A DNA stretch of 64,000 nucleotides, taken from the NCBI RefSeq assembly GCF_016026235.1, contig NZ_CP065613.1; one strand, written 5' to 3'. Source of the stretch: Escherichia coli. Its GTDB lineage: Bacteria; Pseudomonadota; Gammaproteobacteria; Enterobacterales; Enterobacteriaceae. The notes under the pieces are model-generated. The model was not told the DNA's origin. It did not search any database and saw only the letters and a list, made by a program, of their open reading frames with translations. Numbering within the stretch: the first letter of the stretch is position 1; each line of letters opens with the position of its first letter. This document shows positions 35,621 through 35,676 of the stretch, in pieces. A program made the translations under genes and the position numbers.

Positions 35621-35676
35621 GGCAAATGCCAGTAAAAACTGCTTCATAGCGCGGATTTTTACTGGCGTTTGCCTGG
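35621..35676. repeat. Long near-perfect inverted repeat downstream of yqcA
   Basis: caggcaaatgccagtaaaaa ... tttttactggcgtttgcctgg: 20-bp arms with one mismatch and a ~17-nt loop. Confidence 0.6.

Follow-up and report, generated by a model that had tools for sequence, protein, structure and literature searches.

An unusually long hairpin downstream of yqcA in Escherichia coli is most likely a transcript-end element separating the yqcA and glucarate operons

The spacer between yqcA and gudP in Escherichia coli contains a near-perfect 20-bp inverted repeat. The repeat is real, conserved and non-random. Most likely it is a transcript-end hairpin of unusual length that marks off the yqcA operon from the glucarate (gudP) operon. 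As such it most likely belongs to a known kind of element, rather than to a new system, that had previously gone unannotated; neither K-12 MG1655 nor the best-matching E. coli strain carries an annotation at the hairpin. A more specific reading, on which our confidence is evenly divided, is that a stem-loop derived from a terminator ends and protects the yqcC-truC-yqcA transcript, with Rho terminating transcription further downstream.

The repeat lies in a 64-kb stretch of E. coli DNA, analysed here as a whole and referred to as the window. On the plus strand, the locus contains yqcC, truC (34318-35100) and yqcA (35118-35567), which encodes a flavodoxin and is the final gene of the co-directional yqcC-truC-yqcA series before the hairpin, followed by gudP (36001-37353). 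Full-length CsrB small RNA is encoded upstream of yqcC (33587-33946; Rfam RF00018, 378.5 bits), which confirms the identity of the locus. All parts of the repeat are given on the plus strand. The 5′ arm (CAGGCAAATGCCAGTAAAAA, 35619-35638) holds a quasi-palindromic core, GGCAAATGCC (35621-35630), and an A5 run (35634-35638), while the 3′ arm (TTTTTACTGGCGTTTGCCTG, 35656-35675) has a T5 run at its start (35656-35660). The 17-nt loop between the arms (35639-35655) retains a residual 4-bp inner stem formed by CTGC (35639-35642) and GCGG (35651-35654). The arms are complementary at 19 of 20 bases, and the single mismatch is U-G on the plus strand and C-A on the minus strand. The sequence-only reading from which this work started had described 20-bp arms with one mismatch and a loop of ~17 nt, placed between yqcA and the gudP promoter region. 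Both the geometry and the placement are borne out by the sequence and the gene coordinates, and a repeat is indeed present at the proposed position of 35621-35676, although those coordinates are off by 1-2 nt and the true span is 35619-35675. The same reading had proposed folding both strands as a check, and this predicted a stable hairpin either way, the plus strand RNA being the stronger at -33.8 kcal/mol (z = -8.0; none of 200 dinucleotide shuffles was as stable) versus -26.2 kcal/mol (z = -6.4) for the minus strand. In a fold of 35600-35700, weaker outer pairs lengthen the helix to about 23 bp and the 4-bp inner stem forms within the loop. The repeat begins 51 nt past the yqcA stop codon (35567), on the same strand as yqcA and gudP, and is separated from the gudP start (36001) by 325 nt, a position and strand that fit a transcript 3′ end. 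When the required complementarity is relaxed to 77%, the arms extend to 35 nt (35604-35690). It is the longest local inverted repeat across the window, and only 1.1e-4 such repeats (at least 19 of 20 matches, loop of 0-30 nt) are expected by chance in 64 kb. Further local inverted repeats lie at 62230-62269 (perfect 16-nt arms around an 8-nt loop), 62016-62055 (17-nt arms), 24185-24228 (a 22-nt palindrome) and 40180-40215 (a palindrome resembling REP).

The element is present in one copy. A blastn search (word size 11) with a 105-nt query had matches in 5425 of 5426 complete E. coli genomes, with a median of one place in each; 4938 of these 5425 are at least 99% identical over the query. No further copy occurs within the window, where the sole matches are the two arms themselves, and a dispersed repeat or mobile-element remnant was ruled out on the basis of one copy per genome. 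An Rfam 15 covariance-model search of 35100-36000 returned no match at the hairpin even at E values up to 10, with CsrB as the positive control, and consensus scans called no terminator at the hairpin on either strand and no plus strand promoter match. A weak minus strand promoter match, TTGACT-16-AAAAAT (35682-35655), with a CRP-like site at about -41.5, was rejected because its -10 element is not conserved in other genera and its transcript would begin inside the terminator hairpin. Two short open reading frames were also set aside: a 44-codon frame starting with TTG (35669-35803) is open in Escherichia only, having no start codon in Citrobacter and a stop codon in Salmonella, and a 9-codon minus strand frame in the loop is not conserved.

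The same site was compared across 80 yqcA loci from other Enterobacteriaceae species. The gudP gene lies downstream in 66 of the 80, and these 66 share the proximal 260 bp of the yqcA-gudP spacer. Escherichia, part of Citrobacter, Salmonella, Superficieibacter, Silvania, Kosakonia/Phytobacter and Raoultella have the hairpin region; Enterobacter, Leclercia, Lelliottia, Atlantibacter and Buttiauxella lack it, and it is also missing where gud has been lost, as in E. albertii. At three Citrobacter loci (L016, L021 and L022), fragments resembling the C-terminus of glucarate dehydratase directly follow yqcA, which suggests that the gud operons of those species were rearranged or have decayed. The 29 sequences that have the hairpin region represent about nine genera and give a nearly gap-free alignment, in which 21 of the 29 show, in the same columns, an A-run followed by a hairpin and by a run of four or more T. 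Most genera other than Escherichia, among them Citrobacter, Salmonella, Superficieibacter and Raoultella, have a classic plus strand intrinsic terminator at the site (A-run, GC stem and T5-7), with GC stems that vary by genus (CCTTTC/GAAAGG, CCCTTT/AAAGGG, CCGC/GCGG, CCACT/AGTGG and CCGCT/AGTGG). A terminator scan called the element on both strands in one Citrobacter locus (L009) and was negative for the loci L063 and L080, though the A-run, stem and T-run are visible there; the tool likely misses them by extending the stem into the A and T runs.

Escherichia departs from this canonical form in several ways. The inner GC stem is down to 4 bp, and the T-run that serves elsewhere as the terminator T-tract lies inside the 3′ arm. 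The outer arms pair at 18-20 of 20 positions in Escherichia; most Citrobacter, and Salmonella, reach 13-17 and the other sequences 5-13. The genera with the canonical form have a second hairpin, GCCCTCCC-CCTAC-GGGAGGGC, about 5-30 nt past the yqcA stop codon. This GCCCTCCC/GGGAGGGC hairpin is conserved in sequence across several genera (L008, L009, L020, L023, L024, L047, L051, L054 and L058) and is missing in Escherichia, where the segment from the yqcA stop codon to the long hairpin (35560-35620) has no significant RNA structure (z = -0.8). With the stop-proximal hairpin lost, the long hairpin is left as the only 3′ structure in Escherichia. Between the stop-proximal hairpin and the second terminator, the canonical-form genera also have the conserved blocks TGCCAGTAAGC, AACGAC and ACTGAATCGAGTTAGC; the E. 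coli sequence CTGAATCG (35603-35610, plus strand) is a remnant of the last of these. In view of these differences, namely the lost stop-proximal hairpin, the decayed inner GC stem and the outer arms that pair at 18-20 of 20 positions, the long stem is, judging from the aligned spacers, a lineage-specific elaboration of an old terminator.

Among six Escherichia lineages, variation affects 12 of the 17 loop columns, against 2 of the 20 columns in one arm and 5 of the 20 in the other. The arms are identical to those of the window in five other E. coli strains and K-12, and the loop carries a single-nucleotide polymorphism in at least one strain. Deviations in the plus strand arms among the Escherichia lineages comprise three wobbles and three mismatches, with no strand bias. 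Across the 29 aligned sequences, the core G-C positions of the left arm are at least 90% conserved, even where there is no complementary partner. Covariation of the 20-bp stem is not significant, the observed score being reached by 38 of 500 shuffles, and the proportion of paired cells (73.5% versus 72.4% in shuffles) was reached by 90 of 500. One pair covaries convincingly (AU in five, CG in four and UA in three). RNAalifold found no consensus helix in the alignment because the inner stems are out of register, and the inner terminator stems, which differ by genus, cannot be aligned column by column. Inversion of the loop between Escherichia lineages was rejected by eye, as the loop sequences are not reverse complements. 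Individual strains show further changes around the element. Strain 2014C-4135 has an IS66-family insertion 3 nt past the hairpin, in strain S1-CHI-01-A a 21-nt unit upstream of it, GGTGTAAATGCCGTTTTAGC, is present in two additional tandem copies, and strain EC6563 has lost the gud operon and kept the hairpin together with about 55 nt downstream.

Rho-dependent 3′ ends in E. coli have been described as stable stem-loops that lack a U tract and are followed by sequence enriched in C over G; they arise through trimming by PNPase or RNase II after diffuse termination downstream, and terminators have been proposed to switch between the intrinsic and Rho-dependent types during evolution (Dar & Sorek 2018, PMC6061677). 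The yqcA hairpin, too, follows a gene, is stable and has no U tract, and the sequence just downstream is unstructured and enriched in C over G, though it is T-rich. RNA of 35676-35760 is predicted to be unstructured (-4.7 kcal/mol, z = +0.3), and the plus strand tract at 35687-35755 is 84% pyrimidine with a C/G ratio of 3.6 and 7% G, the most pyrimidine-rich 69-nt stretch of the window. We consider it a candidate Rho-loading (rut-like) region, its rut character being suggestive only, since T exceeds C in the tract (40 T and 18 C). We propose that an ordinary intrinsic terminator was ancestral at this site, between yqcC-truC-yqcA and the inducible gudPXD on the same strand, and that in the Escherichia lineage its GC stem decayed while a helix of 20 bp (up to ~23 bp) arose from the A-run, the T-run and the bases beside them. 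RNA polymerase would now read through the hairpin, Rho would load on the pyrimidine-rich, G-poor, unstructured RNA of 35687-35755 and terminate transcription ahead of the gudP promoter, and 3′-to-5′ exonucleases would then trim the transcript back to the stable hairpin, which would become the 3′ end of the yqcA message and protect it. In sum, gudP would be insulated from upstream read-through and the upstream mRNA stabilized. Transcription through the hairpin, the involvement of Rho, trimming and protection are the parts of this scheme that we infer.

The published transcript tables that were searched are silent at the site. The Term-seq and Rho tables of Adams et al. 2021 (PMC7815308) contain no entry in K-12 2922200-2922599, and supplementary file 2 of that study lists no Rho-termination region at the site; nor do these tables record sensitivity to bicyclomycin here. 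This is weak evidence because the tables list only 3′ ends curated by the authors. The sequence-only reading had named the absence of transcript ends here as a ground for refutation, and such an absence is formally found in that one Term-seq dataset (PMC7815308), limited to curated ends. SMRT-Cappable-seq data have no entry at the site, and the accessible part of a RIL-seq-derived table has only a node for the yqcA coding sequence, with no intergenic or 3′ UTR node and no entry for gudP. The literature search found no paper naming both yqcA and gudP.

The hairpin could still act in E. coli as an intrinsic, possibly bidirectional, terminator with release at the embedded T5 run or where the long stem ends, which we regard as distinctly unlikely. 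In its favour, both A5 and T5 survive, the stability of the hairpin is high and the scan calls the homologous element of Citrobacter on both strands. However, all that can have formed while T5 occupies the RNA-DNA hybrid is the 4-bp CUGC/GCGG stem, with its 8-nt loop, in place of the GC-rich stem that immediately precedes the U tract in Citrobacter, Superficieibacter and Raoultella. The U-rich tract of about 7-8 nt expected 3′ of the complete stem is also missing from the tail, GAGTCAAGCGAT, and the sequence past the full stem, GAGUCAAGCGAU, has two U in 12. With only a 4-bp stem and no U-rich tail, canonical intrinsic termination in E. coli is unlikely. Further against it are the negative scan of both strands and the lack of a listed 3′ end in the curated Term-seq table (PMC7815308), and because gudP runs in the same direction and there is no convergent gene, nothing here needs a minus strand terminator. 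The earlier proposal of a strong bidirectional terminator is supported for ancestry, the canonical form being found in other genera and on both strands in Citrobacter, but not for the E. coli form. A neutral origin, in which a decaying terminator was perfected by a template-switch (quasi-palindrome) mutation into a long stem without function, appears quite improbable. It would fit the confinement of the 20-bp extension to Escherichia, covariation limited to one pair that could have come from concerted evolution of the arms, and the lack of an experimental signal in the Term-seq tables and in the accessible part of the RIL-seq-derived table. Against neutrality, the arms are unchanged in the sampled E. 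coli and little changed across Escherichia while the loop varies freely, a pattern that argues for purifying selection on the arms. A small regulatory RNA with its 3′ end at the hairpin is very improbable; it would be processed from the yqcA 3′ UTR or transcribed from a promoter of its own, and (A)CUGAAUCGAGUUAGC would be its seed. Many genera do have a conserved single-stranded block (ACUGAAUCGAGUUAGC) immediately 5′ of the terminator hairpin, and in these genera an independent unit of ~60-110 nt could fit, since yqcA is followed by a hairpin of its own. But neither scans nor inspection of the aligned spacers found a conserved sigma-70 promoter, the E. coli form is without the 3′ U tail usual for Hfq-dependent sRNAs and without a plus strand promoter match, and its supposed seed has diverged (GCUGAAUCGAAUC). 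For a small structured RNA, the third option raised by the sequence-only reading, there was no Rfam match, no significant covariation and no intergenic or 3′ UTR node in the accessible part of the RIL-seq-derived table. That reading had chosen none of its three options, and its interpretation is supported in part.

A reading in terms of DNA rather than RNA calls for a look at the elements upstream of gudP. To probe a connection with CdaR, a matrix was built from cdaR upstream regions of seven genera (K-12 and six others). The best conserved block upstream of cdaR in these genera is a 12-bp palindrome, GTGCAwwTGCAC(AA), located 24 nt before a conserved TATGCT, so that all seven have the arrangement TTGCAC-N24-TATGCT. 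The layout at gudP matches that of cdaR: the putative gudP core promoter (35815-35858, plus strand) is composed of a candidate CdaR box, TTGTGTTGTTGCAC (35815-35828), which scores 10.2 bits in the matrix scan, 24 nt, and a -10 element, TATACT (35853-35858), giving TTGCAC-N24-TATACT at 35823-35858. The garP-garD spacer of K-12 contains two box matches, of 16.2 and 14.7 bits, that score above every position of the window. A strong match at 59363 lies inside a long open reading frame and was taken as chance. These comparisons make GTGCAwwTGCAC a good candidate for the CdaR box, one that comes from the present analysis rather than from published work. It may prove more useful than the hairpin itself, as the literature search found no CdaR binding data and no published CdaR site. 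The gudP promoter region has other conserved elements. A plus strand element, TCCAGGGCTAATGCCAAAATCG (35771-35792), is conserved in the 66 gudP loci and is resembled by the hairpin arms, and a block, yGTGAAs-N6-yCCAC (35747-35768), likewise conserved in the 66 gudP loci, is shared between gudP (TTTCCGTGAAGTGGATTCCAC) and the cdaR upstream region (TCTGTGAACTTCACCAC). Just past the hairpin is a conserved plus strand block, GTCAAGCGA-N6-TCATACTC (35678-35700), which takes the form xGxGA-N6-TCACA in other genera; its TCAAG.GA and TTCA.A are invariant in the 29 sequences, and the block is present even in genera without the hairpin. The CRP consensus is TGTGA-N6-TCACA, and this block thus appears to be CRP-like, about 175 bp upstream of the putative gudP start.

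The arms themselves may be inverted protein boxes (GGCAwwTGCC plus an A-run) that form a distal operator or activating pair for gudP and bind CdaR or another gud regulator, with centres about 43 bp (four helical turns) apart, the hairpin being a by-product of sites that flank the old terminator. We hold this to be doubtful, although several observations are in its favour. Conservation of the left core, GGCAnnTGCC, is at least 90% across the 29 sequences, including those in which it lacks a pairing partner. Between this core and GTCAAGCGA the alignment is ungapped across genera although the bases in between differ, and the sole large indel, in Salmonella, is 10 bp, or one helical turn. The outer arms are unpaired outside Escherichia, Citrobacter and Salmonella and yet conserved in sequence and spacing, which points to a constraint at the level of DNA. 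Among about 128,000 window positions scored with a matrix of the gudP-promoter element alone (66 loci), the left arm comes 4th and the right arm 7th. The matrix also gives 10.6 bits for the cdaR upstream region and 8.5 bits for the garP-garD spacer; as the motif was seen after looking, these statistics are only partly independent. In some genera the arms are near-perfect matches to GTGCAwwTGCAC (Raoultella GGGCATTTGCAC, Phytobacter GTGCATTTACAC and Salmonella GTGCATATGCCC). In E. coli, however, the left arm scores 8.0 bits with the cdaR-box matrix from seven genera (p = 5e-4 per position, with ~0.45 such matches expected in the spacer) and the right arm less than 3 bits, and the site is about 190-245 bp upstream of the putative gudP start. 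The positions at which the arms covary (A-T, T-A and C-G) also do not track the third, upstream copy TGCCAGTAAGC, and this independence favours pairing or concerted evolution of the arms over protein specificity. The possibility of a protein-binding palindrome, also raised at the outset, hence retains the motif similarity and the fixed spacing and is weakened by the poor match to the best candidate regulator box. It is rather unlikely that the two roles are combined and the hairpin is what E. coli has of a conserved module of ~100-150 bp, in which an intrinsic terminator between two inverted, phase-locked boxes (of the GGCAwwTGCC / GTGCAwwTGCAC type on either side) and a CRP-like site would end the operon as RNA and act as a site for the gudP regulator as DNA. 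Such a module might be a distal site that acts by looping, and would couple yqcA read-through to CdaR-dependent induction of gudP.

If the protective 3′ stem-loop with Rho acting downstream is the right interpretation, the locus would illustrate the switch proposed by Dar & Sorek (PMC6061677), from an intrinsic terminator to a protective stem-loop without a U tract; otherwise the hairpin would be an ordinary operon-boundary element of unusual length. The same interpretation would have practical consequences for glucarate biosensor designs that clone the gudP upstream spacer, because the hairpin and the surrounding sites may affect insulation and induction.

Comparison with known systems sets the yqcA hairpin apart from several classes of element that it resembles. 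Like REP and BIME sequences, which are dispersed extragenic palindromes, it lies outside genes, between co-directional operons, and forms a stable hairpin that could block exonucleases. Unlike REP, BIME and ERIC elements, which occur in many copies, it is single-copy and has homologues across genera at this one locus only. As a candidate CdaR (SdaR) operator, its arm core GGCAAATGCC agrees with the candidate box at 8 of 12 positions and resembles the conserved gudP-promoter element GGGCTAATGCC, but the match of the E. coli hairpin is weak and lies far upstream of the promoter. With canonical intrinsic terminators it has in common its position, its strand and the A-run/hairpin/T-run layout of its relatives' terminators, and the E. 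coli form differs from them in its 4-bp GC stem, in the pairing of the T-run inside the long stem and in lacking a U-rich tail. The stems of the usual Rho-dependent 3′ loops are far shorter than 20-23 bp. Near-perfect double-stranded RNA of 20-23 bp is a feature that the hairpin shares with RNase III processing stems, together with a potential, predicted read-through transcript between two operons. In its stability, the absence of a U tract and the unstructured sequence enriched in C over G downstream, it resembles the stem-loops described by Dar & Sorek (PMC6061677), and it differs from them in its embedded T-run and its retained A-run, a feature not associated with Rho-dependent ends in that study. 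Since the locus matches the picture drawn there and its relatives keep both states, a protective 3′ stem-loop derived from an intrinsic terminator is the favoured interpretation of the yqcA hairpin.
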